Positions 24,903 through 31,279 are shown, counted from the first letter of the stretch. The stretch is 35,494 bases of DNA from a virus (IMGVR_UViG_2724679140_000015), one strand, 5' to 3'. Made by a program: numbers and translations. The notes: a model not told the origin generated them from the letters alone.

Positions 24903-24956
24903 ATGAAAACGCAGACATTACCCATCGTTCCATGGATTGGTGGCAAACGCTGCCTT
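24903..24956 (+). pseudogene. truncated remnant of a Dam-like methyltransferase N-terminus
   Basis: MKTQTLPIVPWIGGKRCL matches the N-terminus of the intact gene at 25538 (MKEQSLPIVPWIGGKRRL); frame diverges and stops at 25004; upstream ~85 bp also duplicated. Confidence 0.45.
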
Positions 24957-24962
24957 GCGATA

Positions 24963-25343
24963 TTACATAAGACCACGAGACATATATTGCAGACCTATTC
25001 CTAGAGTCTGGCTAACCAGTGATCGCAACGCTTCTTTCCCTTCAATTTTTATAGAGTCAGATATTCTGGCCCCCAACGGTTTTTCCAGACTTCCAGGCGT
25101 AGCGTTTAATACCTCAAGACCTTTAGCCGTTAGCACTGCGTTGTGGATCCCCCCAGAACTACGCGCCCCGATTAAATAGCCACTGTTTTTAAGCCAGTCT
25201 ACGGTATCAAGAAAAAAAGTAAGTTCATTCTGTCTAACGATATCAACTGCCTTTATATCAATTTTGACGGGGAAAGATTCGTAGAGTCTCCCAAATATCT
25301 CACCAACTATTTCATTAAACCGCTCAATATTTTTTGGGGCCAT
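24963..25343 (-). CDS. hypothetical protein, paralog 2 of the duplicated ~130-aa family
   Basis: Likely start at internal ATG (MAPKNIERF...) at 25343; ORF-track start at 25427 probably over-extended. Confidence 0.45.
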   Translation of the reverse strand: MAPKNIERFNEIVGEIFGRLYESFPVKIDIKAVDIVRQNELTFFLDTVDWLKNSGYLIGARSSGGIHNAVLTAKGLEVLNATPGSLEKPLGARISDSIKIEGKEALRSLVSQTLGIGLQYMSRGLM

Positions 25344-25537
25344 GGTATTAGTAACTCCCTTTAATTGTCGCCCATGAAATATGCAAATAACATGAAAAGA
25401 GCGACTCACCTTGTGCAGCGAACACAAGGCGAGTCATCAACTTACAGGTATGAGCTGTGAGTCAACCGAGGCTCTTCCGTTCTCGAGAACAAGGGAAGCC
25501 TATCGCATTTTCATCTAATGAAAAAGGCTTACAGATA

Positions 25538-26302
25538 ATGAAAGAACAATCTTTACCCATCGTCCCCTGGATTGGGGGAAAACGTCGTCTGGCCAAACAC
25601 ATTCTGCCCCAGTTCCCACTCCATACCTGCTATGTGGAGCCATTCTGCGGCGCAGCAGCACTTTATTTTCTCAAGACTCCCAGCAAGATCGAAGTCATTA
25701 ACGATATCAACGGTGAACTGGTAAATCTGTATCGGGTAGTAAAGCATCATCTGGAAGAATTTGTCCGCCAATTCAAATGGGCGCTGGTTAGCCGGCAGAT
25801 CTACAAATGGCAGCAGATCACCCCGGAAGAAACACTGACGGATATCCAGCGTGCGGCACGGTTCTACTACCTCCAGAAGCAGGCGTTTGGGGGCAAGGTG
25901 GCAGAGCACAGCTTCGGCACCTCCACCACCTCCCCGCCACGCTTCAACCTGCTCCGGATTGAAGAAGAACTGTCAGCGGCACACCTGCGGCTTTCCAGAA
26001 CGGTGATAGAACACATGGACTGGCACCAGTGCATTAAGCGTTATGACCGTCCGCACACGCTGTTCTACTGTGATCCGCCCTATCTGGGGACGGAAGGCTA
26101 TGGTGTGGATTTTCCTGAAGAGAACTACACACTACTCGCAGAACTGGCACGGTGCATCAGAGGAAAGATGATTATCTCGGTGAATGACATTCCGCAGATG
26201 CGTCGGGTGTTCACTGAACTGAACATACAGACGGTGAATATCAACTACAGTCTGGCGGGGAAACCCACGCCGCGCCGTGAACTGGTAATCTGCAACTTCT
26301 GA
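25538..26302 (+). CDS. orphan Dam-like N6-adenine DNA methyltransferase
   Basis: N-terminal PWIGGKR and FCGAAA (AdoMet-binding-like) and catalytic DPPY motif; start at ATG 25538 preferred over GTG 25457. Confidence 0.7.
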   Translation: MKEQSLPIVPWIGGKRRLAKHILPQFPLHTCYVEPFCGAAALYFLKTPSKIEVINDINGELVNLYRVVKHHLEEFVRQFKWALVSRQIYKWQQITPEETLTDIQRAARFYYLQKQAFGGKVAEHSFGTSTTSPPRFNLLRIEEELSAAHLRLSRTVIEHMDWHQCIKRYDRPHTLFYCDPPYLGTEGYGVDFPEENYTLLAELARCIRGKMIISVNDIPQMRRVFTELNIQTVNINYSLAGKPTPRRELVICNF

Positions 26303-26308
26303 AACAAA

Positions 26309-26333
26309 ACCGGAAAGCACAATGCTTTCCGGT
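26309..26333 (-). terminator. hairpin (11-bp stem) followed by T-rich tract on the minus strand; likely terminator downstream of the repressor gene
   Basis: CCGGAAAGCA-CAA-TGCTTTCCGG read directly; minus strand continues TTTTGTTTC. Confidence 0.4.
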
Positions 26334-26418: not shown

Positions 26419-26757
26419 TCAGCCTGCGAGTTTGCTTGGTTTGGGTTGAATGAAGACTTTGCCGACCTCAAGAATTGCCCTCCGTTGTTCGGGGCTCATT
26501 TCGTCGAATGCATCCATTAACTCTTTCTTTTCTTGTGACACATAAGGTGCAACAACAGGCTGACTCCGCACCCCAGTAACTACATACAAAATATCTACAC
26601 CGATTTCTGATAGTGCAGATAACTGCACTGCAGTAGGAGAAGTGCGATCTTTTTCCCAATCAATGAAAGTTCTCTTTGCCACACCTATAGCATCAGCCAA
26701 CCCTTGCTGTGTAAGAGATAGACGCTCTCTTTCTTCTTTAATACGTAACCCGATCAT
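26419..26757 (-). CDS. phage repressor, XRE-family helix-turn-helix
   Basis: HTH-like LSLTQQGLADAIGVAKRTFIDWE; divergent from the ner-like gene; start at ATG 26757 preferred because the ORF-track start (26910) overlaps ner by 50 bp. Confidence 0.5.
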   Translation of the reverse strand: MIGLRIKEERERLSLTQQGLADAIGVAKRTFIDWEKDRTSPTAVQLSALSEIGVDILYVVTGVRSQPVVAPYVSQEKKELMDAFDEMSPEQRRAILEVGKVFIQPKPSKLAG

Positions 26758-26781
26758 GTGAGTTTTTCTGCACTCTTTAAG

Positions 26782-26810
26782 TTGACTGGTGAGATAATCT
26801 GCACCATAAT
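26782..26810 (+). promoter_or_regulatory. candidate early promoter (TTGACT-17 bp-CATAAT) with repeated ATAATCT motifs (operator candidates)
   Basis: Sigma70-like hexamers read directly, ~45 bp upstream of the ner-like start. Confidence 0.35.
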
Positions 26811-26857
26811 CTATCACACATAAGGCAAACATCATTGCATCAACAAAGGAGACAACG

Positions 26858-27046
26858 ATGACTGCAGAACAAGTCAAAGCTCTCTTCCGCCAGCGCGGGA
26901 TCACCTTCACCCGCTGGGCAGAAGAAAACGGCTACAACCGCAATGAGGTATACCGCGTTCTCAATGGGCAGACCAAAGCCCGTTACGGTAAATCCCATGA
27001 AATCGCCGTGAAGTTGGGGCTGAAATCAACAGCTCAGGCAGCCTGA
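26858..27046 (+). CDS. ner: Ner-like DNA-binding protein
   Basis: 62-aa ORF with Ner/Nlp-like pattern; AAAGGAG RBS 5 nt upstream; first gene of the rightward early block. Confidence 0.55.
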   Translation: MTAEQVKALFRQRGITFTRWAEENGYNRNEVYRVLNGQTKARYGKSHEIAVKLGLKSTAQAA

Positions 27047-27098
27047 AGATTTTGAGTCTTTGTAAAAGGTTATCACATATCGCAAAAGAGGTATGCAG

Positions 27099-27407
27099 AT
27101 GAGTAAGACGAATGTTTCAAGCTCCGGCAGTCGCATCCTCCGGGTACTCAAAGCGCTGCGCGGTCATGCCCTGAACGGTATTTCCAACGGTGAACTGGCG
27201 GCAGCACTGCACGAGTCACCGGCAAACATCAACCGGGCACTCAACACCCTCATTGAAGAAGGGTTGGCCCTGAAACTGGAAAACGGGCGTTTCGCGCCGG
27301 GCATCCAGTTACTGCAGATCGCTATGGCCCACAGTAACGAGATGGCACGTGCACAGGATCGCATTAACGAAATCAACCAACGTGTCATTTCAGGTAGTCG
27401 TTTGTAA
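27099..27407 (+). CDS. putative winged-helix DNA-binding protein
   Basis: RILRVLKAL...ISNGELAAAL...INRALNTLIEEGL resembles a MarR/IclR-type wHTH; RBS AAAGAGG 7 nt upstream of ATG 27099. Confidence 0.4.
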   Translation: MSKTNVSSSGSRILRVLKALRGHALNGISNGELAAALHESPANINRALNTLIEEGLALKLENGRFAPGIQLLQIAMAHSNEMARAQDRINEINQRVISGSRL

Positions 27408-27417
27408 GGAGTAATAA

Positions 27418-28329
27418 ATGGGACGCACCAAATCACCGATTAACACTGAACTGAACGCCGAGGTACCGCTGTCGGATGATCTCAATGTCAGTCTGAACGC
27501 CATGACACAGCATCGCATGGAGATCATGCAGCAGTTTGGCGATGGTCAGCCCTATGAGCGTGATCGCATAGTTCATGAGGCTCGGTTTTATATGGCACAG
27601 AGCGCTGAGGCCATGCTGGAAGCAGGTAAACGACTTATTATTCTCAAAGAAAATGAACCACACGGGGACTTTGTTGGAATTGTAGAAGAACAACTTGGTC
27701 TGCATGTGCGCGCAGCACAACGAATGATGAAAGCATCTTTGAAATACCTTTCACCAAAACTAGAGCCAAAAGCGACAACGTTGTCGCTTTTAGGTAAGGC
27801 AAAATTATTTGAACTTGTTGCTGAAGATGACGACGACCTTGCTGAACTGGCCGACGGCGGCACAGTCGCAGGACTGACGCTTGACGATGTTGATCGCATG
27901 TCAGTACGTGAATTGCGTCAGGCCCTGCGCGAAGCGCGCGAAACCAACGCAGCACAACAGCGCGTACTCGCCGACAAAAATGAAAAAATAGACTCACTCT
28001 CCACCAGACTGGAGAAGAAATCCCGTATTCAGCCGCCTGAGCCTGATGAGGAGGTTAAGAAGCTGCGGGCGGAAGTAACAGCATTAGCGGTTGAGGCGGA
28101 ATCTGCTATCGCCGTTCGACTGTCCAGCGCTTTTGAGACACTGTGCGCATATTGTGCTGAAAACATGATTGATACCCCCAGAGATTTCATGGCAGGCCTG
28201 GTCTGTCAACTGGAAAGCACAGCGCGTAGCCTGCGCTCCACATTTGACCTGCCGGACGAGCCAACAGGCAATGCAGCGCCTTCATGGCTGACTGAGCCGA
28301 CGCCACAGATTAACGGGCTGGAGGCATAA
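27418..28329 (+). CDS. hypothetical early protein
   Basis: 303-aa ORF with TAAGGAG RBS; sits between ner and the transposase gene. Confidence 0.4.
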   Translation: MGRTKSPINTELNAEVPLSDDLNVSLNAMTQHRMEIMQQFGDGQPYERDRIVHEARFYMAQSAEAMLEAGKRLIILKENEPHGDFVGIVEEQLGLHVRAAQRMMKASLKYLSPKLEPKATTLSLLGKAKLFELVAEDDDDLAELADGGTVAGLTLDDVDRMSVRELRQALREARETNAAQQRVLADKNEKIDSLSTRLEKKSRIQPPEPDEEVKKLRAEVTALAVEAESAIAVRLSSAFETLCAYCAENMIDTPRDFMAGLVCQLESTARSLRSTFDLPDEPTGNAAPSWLTEPTPQINGLEA

Positions 28330-28332
28330 CCA

Positions 28333-30102
28333 ATGAATGCTGCCCTGACTGAACGACTGGTTTATGTCGCCCGCGCGGCACGTGACGCGGGGCATGGTAA
28401 ACGCGGTGCAATATACGACGCTGCCTGTGCTGAACTTGGCATGTCCCGCGCCACTCTGCTGCGCAGGCTGAAGGAGGTCTCTGTGACTGATAAACGCAAA
28501 AAACGCGCCGATGCCGGGCGCAGCGCCCTGACCCGCGACGAAGCCGCGCTGATATCTGCCACACTGCGTGAGGCCACCCGCAAGAACGGTAAGCGTCTTT
28601 ATTCCATCGCGGATGCAGTGGAAACCCTGCGGGCTAACGGCTTTATCTCCGCAGGCAGAACAGATGAAACCACCGGTGAGTTTTTCCCGTTGTCCGAAGA
28701 TGCCATCAGTCGTGCCCTGCGTAACTATGGCCTGCACCCGGAACAACTGGATGCCCCTGCACCGCATACCGAAGTGGCCAGTCTGCACCCCAATCATGTC
28801 TGGCAGATTGACGCCTCACTATGCACGCTTTACTACCTGAGCAATGGACATAAAGGGCTGCAGGTGATGGACAGCGCGAAATTCTACAAGAACAAGCCCG
28901 CTAACCTTGCCCGTATCGCCAGTGACCGCGTGTGGAGTTACGAGATTACCGACCATGCCAGCGGCTGGATTTACGTTGAGTATGTGACGGGTGCGGAATC
29001 CGGTGAGAACCTGTGTTCTGTGCTTATCAACGCCATGCAGGAGCGCGGTGGCGCAGACGTGCTGCACGGCGTGCCGAAAATACTCTATCTCGACCCCGGT
29101 TCGGCGAACACCGCGGGTATGACGAAAAACATGTGCCGCTCACTGGGCATCGACCTGATAGCGCACAGGCCGCATAACGCCCGCGCCACCGGACAGGTGG
29201 AAAAGGCGCGTGACATTATCGAACGCAAGCTGGAGCCGGGTCTGAAGTTCCGGCCGGTTCACAGTCTGGAAGAACTCAACGCGCTGGCCGCGAAATGGCG
29301 CAGCCACTTTAACGCCACGGCTGTTCACAGCCGCCACGGTAAAACCCGCACGGATATCTGGCTGAAGATTACTGCTGAGCAGCTGAAAAAAGCGCCTTCC
29401 GTTGAGGTATGTCGTGAACTGGCTGTGGCGGCACCAGAACTCCGCAAAGTCACGCCAAAACTTCGTGTCTCGTTCCGGGGCACTGAATTTGACGTATCAA
29501 CGGTACCGGGCGTACTGGTCGGTGAAAAACTGATGATTACCCGTAACCCGTGGCGCAGCGATGTGGCACAGGTGGTTCTGACCGGTGAGGACGGCCACGA
29601 GACGTTCTTCCTGGTCGAAGAGGTCAGAAAGAACGAGTTTGGCTTTGCTGAAGGCGCGGCGGTATTTGGCGAAAGTTACAAAGCCCTGCCGGAAACCCCG
29701 GCGCAGATGGCGGCAAAAGAAACCGAAGCGCTGGTCACCGGTACAGACAACGCCGCAGATGCAGCTGCCGCACGCAAGGCGAAGGCACTGCCGTTCGGCG
29801 GACGACTTGACCCGTATAAACATATTGATGACGCCACACTTCCGGCCTATATGCCGAAGCGTGGTCAGGCCTCTGACGTACGCGGGCCGCGCACTGAACA
29901 ACGTCCCATGACTCATGTGGAGGCCGCGAAAGCCCTGCGCGATAAGTTCAGCGCCAACGGCCTTACCTGGACGCCGGAACATTACCGCCAGTTAACGGCA
30001 CAGTACCCGGACGGCGTACCGGAAGCCGCACTGGATGAAGTCATGGCCACGCTGACCACGCCGGTCCGCAGCAGTGTTATCAGCATTGTTAACGGCAACT
30101 GA
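28333..30102 (+). CDS. DDE transposase A (retroviral integrase-fold)
   Basis: 589-aa ORF with N-terminal HTH-like region and catalytic-core-like WQIDAS...ITDHASG motifs; followed by the ATPase gene. Confidence 0.75.
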   Translation: MNAALTERLVYVARAARDAGHGKRGAIYDAACAELGMSRATLLRRLKEVSVTDKRKKRADAGRSALTRDEAALISATLREATRKNGKRLYSIADAVETLRANGFISAGRTDETTGEFFPLSEDAISRALRNYGLHPEQLDAPAPHTEVASLHPNHVWQIDASLCTLYYLSNGHKGLQVMDSAKFYKNKPANLARIASDRVWSYEITDHASGWIYVEYVTGAESGENLCSVLINAMQERGGADVLHGVPKILYLDPGSANTAGMTKNMCRSLGIDLIAHRPHNARATGQVEKARDIIERKLEPGLKFRPVHSLEELNALAAKWRSHFNATAVHSRHGKTRTDIWLKITAEQLKKAPSVEVCRELAVAAPELRKVTPKLRVSFRGTEFDVSTVPGVLVGEKLMITRNPWRSDVAQVVLTGEDGHETFFLVEEVRKNEFGFAEGAAVFGESYKALPETPAQMAAKETEALVTGTDNAADAAAARKAKALPFGGRLDPYKHIDDATLPAYMPKRGQASDVRGPRTEQRPMTHVEAAKALRDKFSANGLTWTPEHYRQLTAQYPDGVPEAALDEVMATLTTPVRSSVISIVNGN

Positions 30103-30112
30103 GGAGGAAAAC

Positions 30113-31279
30113 ATGCTGGTACTGAAGCAGCAACTGAAAGAGGCCCGTATCCCACAGGCGGTGGTGGCGAGAGCTGTCGATGTTTCTGAGGCCACGCTGG
30201 CCCAGATTGTGAATCATAACGCGTGGCCCCGCACCCGCCCCGGAGAAGTGCGCCGGCGTCTTGCGTCCTGGCTGGAAAGTCAGGGGATTGATACAACGAA
30301 GAGTTTTGATGCTGTACAGGGCGCGGCCACGCCCCGTACAGCGGGTACCACAGATAAAACGAGCCTCAGTGAGGAAGAGAATATGTTACTCAAAAAACAG
30401 GTGTTATTTCCAGCAACCAAAAAAGCGTTTGGTCTTTTCCGTGACCCGTTCGCCGACGAAGCCATGCAGGGTTCTGATGATGTGTTCACCACCCCGGACA
30501 TCCGCTATGTGCGTGAAGCGCTGTACCAGACAGCCCGTCATGGTGGGTTTATGGCCGTCATCGGTGAGTCCGGTGCGGGCAAATCCACGCTGCGCCGCGA
30601 CCTGACTGAACGAATCAACCGCGAGAATGCGCCGGTAATTGTTATCGAGCCATACGTCATCGCTATGGAAGACAACGATGTGAAAGGGAAAACTCTGAAG
30701 GCAGCAGCGATTGCCGAAGCCATTATCAGTACCATTGCACCACTGGAAAGCATCAGACGCAGTCAGGACGCCCGCTTTCGCCAGTTGCATCGCGTCCTGA
30801 AAGACAGCAGCCAGGCGGGGTTCAGCCACGTTCTGGTGATTGAGGAGGCCCACAGCCTGCCCATTCCGACACTGAAACACCTCAAACGCTTTTTTGAGCT
30901 GGAGTCCGGTTTCAAAAAACTGCTGTCCATCGTGCTGATTGGCCAGCCGGAACTGGCGACAAAACTGTCTGAACGCAATATGGAAGTCCGTGAAGTCGTT
31001 CAGCGCTGTGAGGTGGTCGAACTTCTGCCTCTGGACAATCACCTTGAAGAGTTTCTGACGTTCAAACTGCAACGGGCCGGTAAACAACTGACGGACATTA
31101 TGGACGCCAGCGCAGTGGATGCCATACGTGCCCGCCTGAGCAATCCGGGAAGTCATCGTAAAAACAGGGTCAGCCTGCTGTATCCGCTGGCCGTCAGTAA
31201 CCTGGTAATAGCCGCCATGAATCTGGCTGCTGAAATCGGGGTTCCACAGGTCAACGCTGACGTTGTCAAAGGGGTTTAA
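30113..31279 (+). CDS. transposition ATPase B (AAA+, MuB/TniB-like)
   Basis: Walker A GESGAGKST; N-terminal HTH-like segment; GAGGAGG RBS 5 nt upstream of ATG 30113. Confidence 0.7.
   Translation: MLVLKQQLKEARIPQAVVARAVDVSEATLAQIVNHNAWPRTRPGEVRRRLASWLESQGIDTTKSFDAVQGAATPRTAGTTDKTSLSEEENMLLKKQVLFPATKKAFGLFRDPFADEAMQGSDDVFTTPDIRYVREALYQTARHGGFMAVIGESGAGKSTLRRDLTERINRENAPVIVIEPYVIAMEDNDVKGKTLKAAAIAEAIISTIAPLESIRRSQDARFRQLHRVLKDSSQAGFSHVLVIEEAHSLPIPTLKHLKRFFELESGFKKLLSIVLIGQPELATKLSERNMEVREVVQRCEVVELLPLDNHLEEFLTFKLQRAGKQLTDIMDASAVDAIRARLSNPGSHRKNRVSLLYPLAVSNLVIAAMNLAAEIGVPQVNADVVKGV

Follow-up and report, generated by a model that had tools for sequence, protein, structure and literature searches.

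The 100-bp gap (26758-26857) between a leftward repressor gene and the rightward gene of a BcepMu gp16-family protein probably operates as a lysis/lysogeny switch, in which an early promoter (Pe) would be governed by three operators, one of them (O3) acting through DNA looping, the specificity of the repressor would be carried by a swappable cassette, and the gp16 protein would act at a shared leader. That the repressor binds these sites and represses Pe, that a loop forms, where the transcript starts and where gp16 acts are inferences from the comparison of related loci. The first-pass annotation had described a divergent control region for the repressor and the early operon at this place, and this description holds with exact coordinates, the two ATG codons being located at 26757 (- strand) and 26858. 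No experimental description of the immunity control of these prophages was found in the papers searched. The operator and promoter coordinates are now precise and testable, and they could help annotation, superinfection-immunity grouping and the engineering or curing of prophages. Besides, two unsupported transfers from phage Mu are corrected, namely operators doubling as an enhancer and the identification of the first early gene as Ner. The switch itself is of the conventional repressor/promoter/operator type of a known phage group and leaves the understanding of phage switches unchanged.

Gene order and occurrence of the prophage

The whole stretch of DNA analysed here (35,494 nucleotides), hereafter referred to as the window, is a BcepMu/B3-like transposable prophage of E. 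coli. A small HTH protein of the gp16 family is encoded first, divergently from an HTH repressor, and an rve transposase and a MuB-like ATPase follow downstream in the same operon. The repressor gene (26422-26757, - strand; 112 aa, HTH_3) was identified as an ORF with Pfam and PHROG matches, and the gap separates it from the first early gene (26858-27046, + strand), whose 62-aa product matches TIGR04111 and phrog_925. Further along the same strand are found the genes of an IclR-type HTH protein (27093-27407), a DUF3102 protein (27418-28329), the rve (DDE) transposase (28333-30102; Pfam rve, phrog_310 with E=3e-147) and the MuB-like ATPase (30074-31279; phrog_296, DNA transposition protein, E=1e-93).

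On the other side, a terminator-like hairpin (26309-26333, - strand), made of an 11-bp stem followed by a T-rich tail, lies 3' of the repressor stop codon and is the probable end of the repressor transcript; beyond it lies a Dam methylase gene (25457-26302, + strand). Just upstream of this intact dam, a truncated duplicate of the N-terminus of the methylase (MKTQTLPIVPWIGGKR..., 24903-24960) was observed, with a low-GC ORF of 154 aa in the opposite orientation 3' of the duplicate (24963-25427), for which Pfam gave no match. Altogether, the segment 24903-25427 looks like a moron insertion with a duplicated dam 5' end. An Rfam search returned no RNA family anywhere in the 35.5-kb window.

The nearest phage record is Escherichia phage PhiKM (Bcepmuvirus), with 93% identity across 76% of a 1.1-kb probe. 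Related prophage DNA was detected in 621 of 5426 complete E. coli genomes (~11%), ST131 and the asymptomatic-bacteriuria strain 83972 among them, and the exact immunity region of the window is present in 92 of these 621 genomes, e.g., in strains C51 and 83972.

Two candidate operators in the gap

Two sequences of the gap, GTGAGTTTTTCTGCAC (26758-26773, + strand) and GTGAGATAATCTGCAC (26789-26804, + strand), constitute a 16-nt direct repeat, 31 bp apart, which had been missed in the first-pass annotation and has a shuffle probability of about 0.018. These candidate operators, O1 and O2 respectively, are 16 bp long and share the form GTGAG-N5-CTGCAC. O1 abuts the repressor start codon and its flanks are conserved; O2, the candidate main operator, occupies 16 bp of the 17-bp spacer that separates the -35 hexamer of Pe from its -10 hexamer.

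Orthologues having the same repressor HTH domain were collected through a scan of GTDB genomes with the repressor and a pattern scan of IMG/VR. The latter gave 73 matches, mostly due to chance, of which 15 passed a repressor-context filter; one (L092) was spurious and there were 11 distinct genuine orthologues. The alignment contained 12 sequences plus the window (13 in total), with orthologues from Mixta, Klebsiella, Symbiopectobacterium and uncultured phages, and as these are mutually related, their conservation statistics are to be taken as approximate. In 11 of these 13 sequences, O1 and O2 alike retained GTGAG and CTGCAC as flanks, and the two Symbiopectobacterium loci kept O1 with two to three changes in the flanks of O2. 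The five-base centre of O2 varied among the 13 sequences (ATAAT, GTAAT, GAAAT, GTTTT, TTTTT, ATTTT). The distance between O1 and O2 is 31 bp in the window and 30 bp in the Klebsiella type.

Every heteroimmune type carries, exactly within the promoter spacer, a dyad peculiar to it, and the other immunity types also present an operator-like site at, or overlapping, their own repressor start codon. A half-site consensus of the family, GTGCA-N6-TGCAC, was seen in B3, in Microbulbifer (GTGCAATATATTGCAC) and in a Rhodocyclaceae relative. The left halves of O1 and O2 (GTGAG) deviate from the family half-site GTGCA; hence, these two sites can be read as direct repeats rather than dyads. As in Cro/CI (XRE) systems, an HTH_3 repressor is accompanied by repeated sites, which overlap the promoter and vary in step with the specificity of the repressor.

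According to this arrangement, the 112-aa XRE-type repressor would most likely bind the 16-bp sites as a dimer, and its presence on O2, between -35 and -10, would exclude RNA polymerase. O1, placed three helical turns (31 bp) from O2 on the same helix face and against the repressor ATG, could provide cooperative binding and autoregulation. A 17-nt inverted repeat (26759-26775/26860-26876) was also considered as an operator and rejected, its right arm being in the gp16 coding sequence, which is common to types with unrelated operators.

A candidate remote operator inside the repressor gene

A mismatch scan revealed a third candidate site, O3 (GTGCAGATAACTGCAC, 26613-26628), which overlaps codons 44-49 of the repressor (AVQLSAL) and is separated from O1 by 145 bp and from O2 by 176 bp. 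This perfect palindrome, GTGCAG-ATAA-CTGCAC, is the sole perfectly symmetric site of the three; one exact match occurs in the window versus 0.12 expected at one mismatch or fewer. All 16 nt are identical in 13 of 13 orthologues, synonymous positions included, compared with 26-58% of the other repressor codons with a conserved amino acid that carry synonymous changes. O3 falls within 17 invariant columns, the longest such run in the aligned part of the repressor coding sequence, and a rough joint probability of 1e-3 to 1e-4 for this conservation over three lineages was obtained by multiplying the rates.

As O3 is coding sequence that would also form an RNA hairpin, other causes of its synonymous conservation are possible. 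It could be kept for an mRNA hairpin (6-bp stem, 4-nt loop), for a codon or translation constraint on the conserved AVQLSAL codons or for another factor, leaving only the two promoter-proximal operators. This proposal agrees with B3, in which the spacer operator stands alone at up to two mismatches, with no O1- or O3-like sites; because B3 is devoid of these extra sites, an arrangement with three sites does not characterise the family as a whole. However, the proposal is unlikely in view of the O3 half-sites, which are identical to the CTGCAC kept unchanged in O1 and O2 and fit the family consensus, and of the heteroimmune types, which carry their own, different operators intragenically at different codon positions. 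L002 contains in its own repressor gene a copy of its own operator (TGCTCATTCCAGTGAGCA) with 1 mismatch over 14 specified bases (~7e-4 expected per locus, by our own estimate), and L003 and L005 also have intragenic operator copies in their own repressor genes (TATACCCAACTGTGT(A/G)CA). Since intragenic copies of differing operators are not predicted by an RNA or codon explanation, the latter is disfavoured. Considered as an operator, O3 would presumably be the strongest site and would probably strengthen repression by DNA looping.

An exchangeable immunity cassette

Local blastn comparisons with L002, L003, L004 and L005 placed breakpoints at 26528/26533 and 26805/26806, and the heteroimmune E. 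coli relatives align with the window only left of 26533 and right of 26805. The interval between them (26534-26805, ~270 bp) comprises the coding sequence of the repressor HTH domain together with O3, O1, the -35 and O2, i.e., the first ~75 repressor codons and the left 48 bp of the gap, and its right end is exactly at the -10. Conversely, the -10, the 47-nt leader and gp16 constitute the common background of the E. coli immunity types. On the evidence of these alignments, immunity specificity resides in this ~270-bp cassette, which is swapped as a unit between relatives.

The repressor consists of an N-terminal XRE/HTH_3 domain and a C-terminal part of ~35 aa in common with heteroimmune repressors. 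A motif, FDxMxxEQ(R/Q)RxxLxxGKxxxQPKPxK(L/I/F)AG, encoded by the ~37 C-terminal codons (26422-26533), was observed in repressors with unrelated N-terminal HTH domains, and the left recombination breakpoint of the cassette coincides with the start of this shared segment. Such a C-terminus may be a common oligomerisation module, or the target of an antirepressor or protease.

In two loci of Candidatus Symbiopectobacterium (L009/L010), the repressor HTH domain, the promoter, O1 and O2 correspond to those of the window, and past the -10 both the leader, which contains repeats of AACCAC, and the first early gene are different ones. These loci independently support the view that recombination joins the parts at the -10. 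A different replacement was seen in L007, a relative from E. coli strain E8 (2120-2428), in which both the repressor and the gp16 gene are replaced by unrelated ones, namely a repressor of 138 aa and a small ORF encoding an HTH, which is not annotated, with AT-rich dyads of their own (TGAATAAGTACATTTATTCA). From the IclR-like gene on, L007 has the same early operon, with a transposase N-terminus 100% identical to that of the window.

As gp16 and its site are common to immunity types, cross-talk between prophages through gp16 is possible. The broader scheme, in which a plug-in cassette with an intragenic loop operator is combined with a shared gp16 acting on prophages of other types, leading to cross-talk or cross-induction, is tentative and rather doubtful. 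If true, such effects would concern the BcepMu-like prophages, which are present in ~11% of complete E. coli genomes.

The gp16 protein and the shared leader

The label "ner-like" given to the first early gene in the first-pass annotation is appropriate to its position and does not extend to its family. The protein belongs to the BcepMu gp16 family (TIGR04111, 97.4 bits versus a cut-off of 34), and its score against the Ner/Nlp family (Pfam HTH_35) stays below the cut-off (17.9 versus 25 bits). A phmmer search with gp16 against all PDB sequences, which presumably include the Mu Ner structure, gave no match at E<=10. The AF2 model of gp16 (pLDDT 89.7) had as best PDB fold matches the 434 repressor DNA-binding domain and 434 Cro (TM 0.56-0.61, with weak E-values), and no Ner entry appeared in the top 50 of this fold search. 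Hence, the fold predicted from the model is an HTH of the 434 Cro/repressor type, and a distant fold may be common to gp16 and Ner.

The gp16 protein is 87-100% identical across immunity types that have unrelated operators, its gene being outside the exchanged cassette. Because of this near-identity, gp16 would act at a shared site and not at the repressor operators; from the covariation, it would not behave as a Cro-like partner on those operators. The shared leader (26811-26857, + strand) contains CACACAT (26815-26821) and CAAACAT (26826-26832), 11 bp apart, and the Shine-Dalgarno sequence AAGGAG (26846-26851). CACAC occurs 18 times in 11 leaders of gp16-family genes versus 1.9 expected, a count that is only suggestive as the loci are interrelated, and tandem repeats of CACAC type are present in such leaders of Pseudomonas (TCACACGAAA, two copies), Microbulbifer, Rhodocyclaceae and B3. 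By hypothesis, the leader is thus a candidate gp16 binding region, where gp16 would probably bind repeats of the CACAC type (+1 to +15) in the manner of Mu Ner, and not the operators in the manner of lambda Cro.

The operator region and the Mu enhancer

In Mu, as pointed out in the first-pass annotation, the region equivalent to the gap also acts as the transposition enhancer. That the operator region doubles here as an enhancer bound by the transposase is very improbable. Its case consists of the positional analogy with Mu and the presence of a DDE transposase and a MuB-like ATPase downstream, but the repressor and the transposase are not homologous, BLASTP finding no similarity between them (E=7.5). 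Moreover, the transposase N-terminus does not covary with the operators: its first 150 aa are 100% identical in L004 and L007, the operators of which are unrelated to those of the window, and 77 of 84 residues are identical in L006, which has the same operators. At E<=0.01, Pfam detected in the transposase nothing but rve, with no Mu-specific family and no Mu I-alpha domain (PF02316). The alignment of the transposase to phrog_310 starts no earlier than profile position 129, which is consistent with a missing N-terminal domain. Finally, matching of the full IHF consensus (WATCAANNNNTTR) gave no site anywhere in the window. A transposase site may instead be located within the shared leader.

A palindrome inside the DUF3102 gene

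Inside the DUF3102 gene, a perfect 24-28-bp palindrome, CCAAAAGCGACAAC|GTTGTCGCTTTTAG, centred on AACGTT, was observed at 27766-27793. Its arms differ between relatives and remain complementary up to the centre; of the 14 pairs, seven carry changes on both sides, and pairing is retained in 96% of cells. Covariation scores 0.554, as compared with 0.196 in shuffled data (none of 500 shuffles reached the observed value) and at most 0.10 with the pairing slid. Between relatives, the palindrome type changes together with a variable segment of the DUF3102 protein itself (residues ~85-110), for which a helix-turn-helix is predicted with low confidence, and independently of the IclR-like protein, of gp16 and of the transposase N-terminus. 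This covariation suggests that DUF3102 is probably a DNA-binding protein with a site inside its own gene, lambda O/ori and ParB/parS being comparable protein-site pairs. The structure model of DUF3102 has a pLDDT of 55.5, a search of PDB sequences returned nothing meaningful and no function was found for DUF3102 in the literature. If there is an accessory cis element for transposition or regulation, one may speculate that the palindrome is a better candidate than the operator region.

The ATAATCT motif

Two copies of ATAATCT, at 26794-26800 and 26806-26812, i.e., 12 bp apart in the gap, had been proposed as operator half-sites overlapping the -10. The copies do exist, and the motif is over-represented in the window, with six copies versus 1.9 expected (0 of 100 shuffles reach six). 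Nevertheless, an exact 7-mer repeat at 7-30 bp was obtained in ~21% of shuffled gaps and is not above chance, and the other four copies of the window (2432, 2838, 24898 on the - strand and 35178 on the - strand) have unrelated contexts, with no promoter-like or dyad feature in common. The first copy corresponds to the variable centre of O2 plus two nt of its right half-site and varies under the same repressor HTH domain: L039, the repressor of which is identical to that of the window, has GTAATCT in its place. The second copy is made of the -10 plus the leader start and is common to all immunity types; therefore, it is not an immunity-specific operator. The half-site model is thus largely refuted by the comparative data, and its chance of being correct is extremely low. 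The preferred operators remain the 16-bp sites O1 and O2.

The probable early promoter

The TTGACT (26782-26787, + strand) and CATAAT (26805-26810, + strand) hexamers, already proposed in the first-pass annotation as the early promoter, match the consensus at 10 of 12 positions with a 17-bp spacer upstream of the gene, as expected for sigma70 (16-18 bp). The window contains three such matches of at least 10/12 on both strands versus 2.8 expected, so that consensus alone is not above chance; the probability that one falls by chance in a 100-bp stretch of the gap composition is ~0.018. With position weights, which are approximate values, the pair scores 12.45 and is the single best placement on both strands of the 35.5-kb window, no other reaching 11. 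It is also the sole good promoter placement near the gap.

The strongest evidence comes from relatives. A TTGnnn -35 and an nATAAT -10 are present at fixed positions in the E. coli immunity types, the hexamer positions being kept in five heteroimmune relatives, and they are also kept in the Klebsiella, Mixta and Microbulbifer relatives and in B3. TTGACT and CATAAT flank the spacer gGTGAGATAATCTGCAC in the window type. L002, the common 68%-coverage variant among the E. coli matches, O25b:H4-ST131 strains included, has TTGATA and AATAAT around the dyad TGCTCATAATTATGAGC; TTGCTT and TATAAT surround TATACACGTTTGTGTA in L005, TTGACA and CATAAT surround ATGAGAACAATAGTTCT in L004, and TTGACA and CACTAT surround GGTGCAATATTTGGCAC in B3. 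Since these positions are constant across unrelated spacers, the hexamers would be a real promoter and the spacer element an operator. That the match is fortuitous and early transcription begins elsewhere is scarcely credible, for although sites of this quality occur window-wide at the chance rate, this one is the top-scoring placement, lies 47 nt upstream of the first early gene and is positionally conserved in heteroimmune and distant relatives, and RNA-seq of phage Fc02 favours a start upstream of the ner-like gene (PMC9936078).

TTGACT-17-CATAAT is thus very probably, on these comparisons, the early promoter. The transcription start predicted from the hexamer positions is located ~7 nt past the -10 (26816-26818, + strand); starting near 26817, the early transcript would have a 41-nt leader with the AAGGAG Shine-Dalgarno sequence. 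Pe, a strong sigma70 promoter, would drive the rightward operon encoding the Cro-like gp16 protein, the IclR-type HTH protein, the DUF3102 protein, the DDE transposase and the MuB-like ATPase.

The repressor and its own transcription

The 112-aa repressor matches Pfam HTH_3 (PF01381) with E=1.6e-7 and 31.7 bits versus a cut-off of 23, as well as PHROG families of transcriptional repressors or regulators, and contains no RecA-cleavable peptidase domain. Its start codon is the same as that given by RefSeq for the repressor of L006. No convincing Shine-Dalgarno sequence is visible for this gene, and no convincing leftward promoter was obtained, the best leftward scores being at most 6.6, a value equalled by 290 placements in the window.

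Two candidates were considered and rejected. The best local one is an extended -10-like TGaTAGATT (26816 to 26808, leftward, score 5.35), which overlaps the -10 of Pe, so its conservation is inseparable from that of the -10 and leader; this overlap recalls the overlapping pC2 and pE of B3 and Fc02. In Fc02, of the B3 family, pC2 and pE overlap within a gap of 106 bp; RNA-seq showed that pE fires on repressor inactivation and that the lysogenic repressor transcript comes from a distal promoter antisense to the early genes (PMC9936078). The other candidate, TCGTCA-18-AATAAT (9/12, 27833-27804, - strand), has hexamers that are not conserved in relatives. It was noted that this leftward sequence is located just upstream of the DUF3102 palindrome and recalls pC1, the distal lysogenic promoter of Fc02. 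By analogy, a repressor promoter overlapping Pe and a distal one as in Fc02 are both possible arrangements.

Comparison with known systems

The layout of B3 and Fc02 (Beetrevirus) is among the closest. Like the window, they have an HTH repressor gene and a first early gene of the gp16 family that diverge from a gap of ~100 bp, a TTGACA-17-bp promoter with a dyad of GTGCA-N6-TGCAC type in its spacer, a similar CACAC/GCAACATC leader, and DUF3102 and transposase genes downstream. However, the repressor is different (ORF18 of B3, 136 aa), B3 presents one operator-like site and the early operon differs in gene content. In Fc02, the distal pC1 transcribes the repressor in lysogeny, and no equivalent was identified in the window.

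BcepMu of Burkholderia (gp17 repressor, gp16) also resembles the window in its TIGR04111 first early gene, the nearest record, PhiKM, being in Bcepmuvirus, and PhiKM likewise has a gp16-family gene divergent from an HTH repressor. In KS10 and BcepMu, the repressor and the DNA-binding protein are divergent (PMC2628397). No description of BcepMu operators or promoters was found in the papers searched.

With Mu and D108, the window shares a divergent repressor, a first early gene that encodes a small DNA-binding protein and precedes the transposition genes, three sites attributed to the repressor, and an early protein that is probably at its own site and not at the operators of the repressor. Unlike theirs, its repressor is of XRE type, not of the Mu c/MuA I-alpha type, and is not homologous to the transposase. 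The window also differs from Mu and D108 by the lack of an IHF consensus and by a first early gene that stays below the Ner-family (HTH_35) cut-off. The Mu gap is roughly 200 bp long, versus 100 bp in the window.

TP901-1 CI (OR, OL, OD) and coliphage 186 CI are examples of three-site looping switches. The lambdoid phages and 434 (CI/Cro) are like the window in having a Cro/CI-type HTH repressor, a divergent partner, here 434 Cro-like, and multiple dyads with cooperative spacing. One distant site in the window suggests looping, as in the TP901-1 switch (PMC7250872). In contrast to all of these, the Cro-like gene of the window is outside the immunity cassette and its product would have no operators in common with the repressor, the remote site is inside the repressor gene, and the repressor is devoid of a RecA-cleavable peptidase domain.
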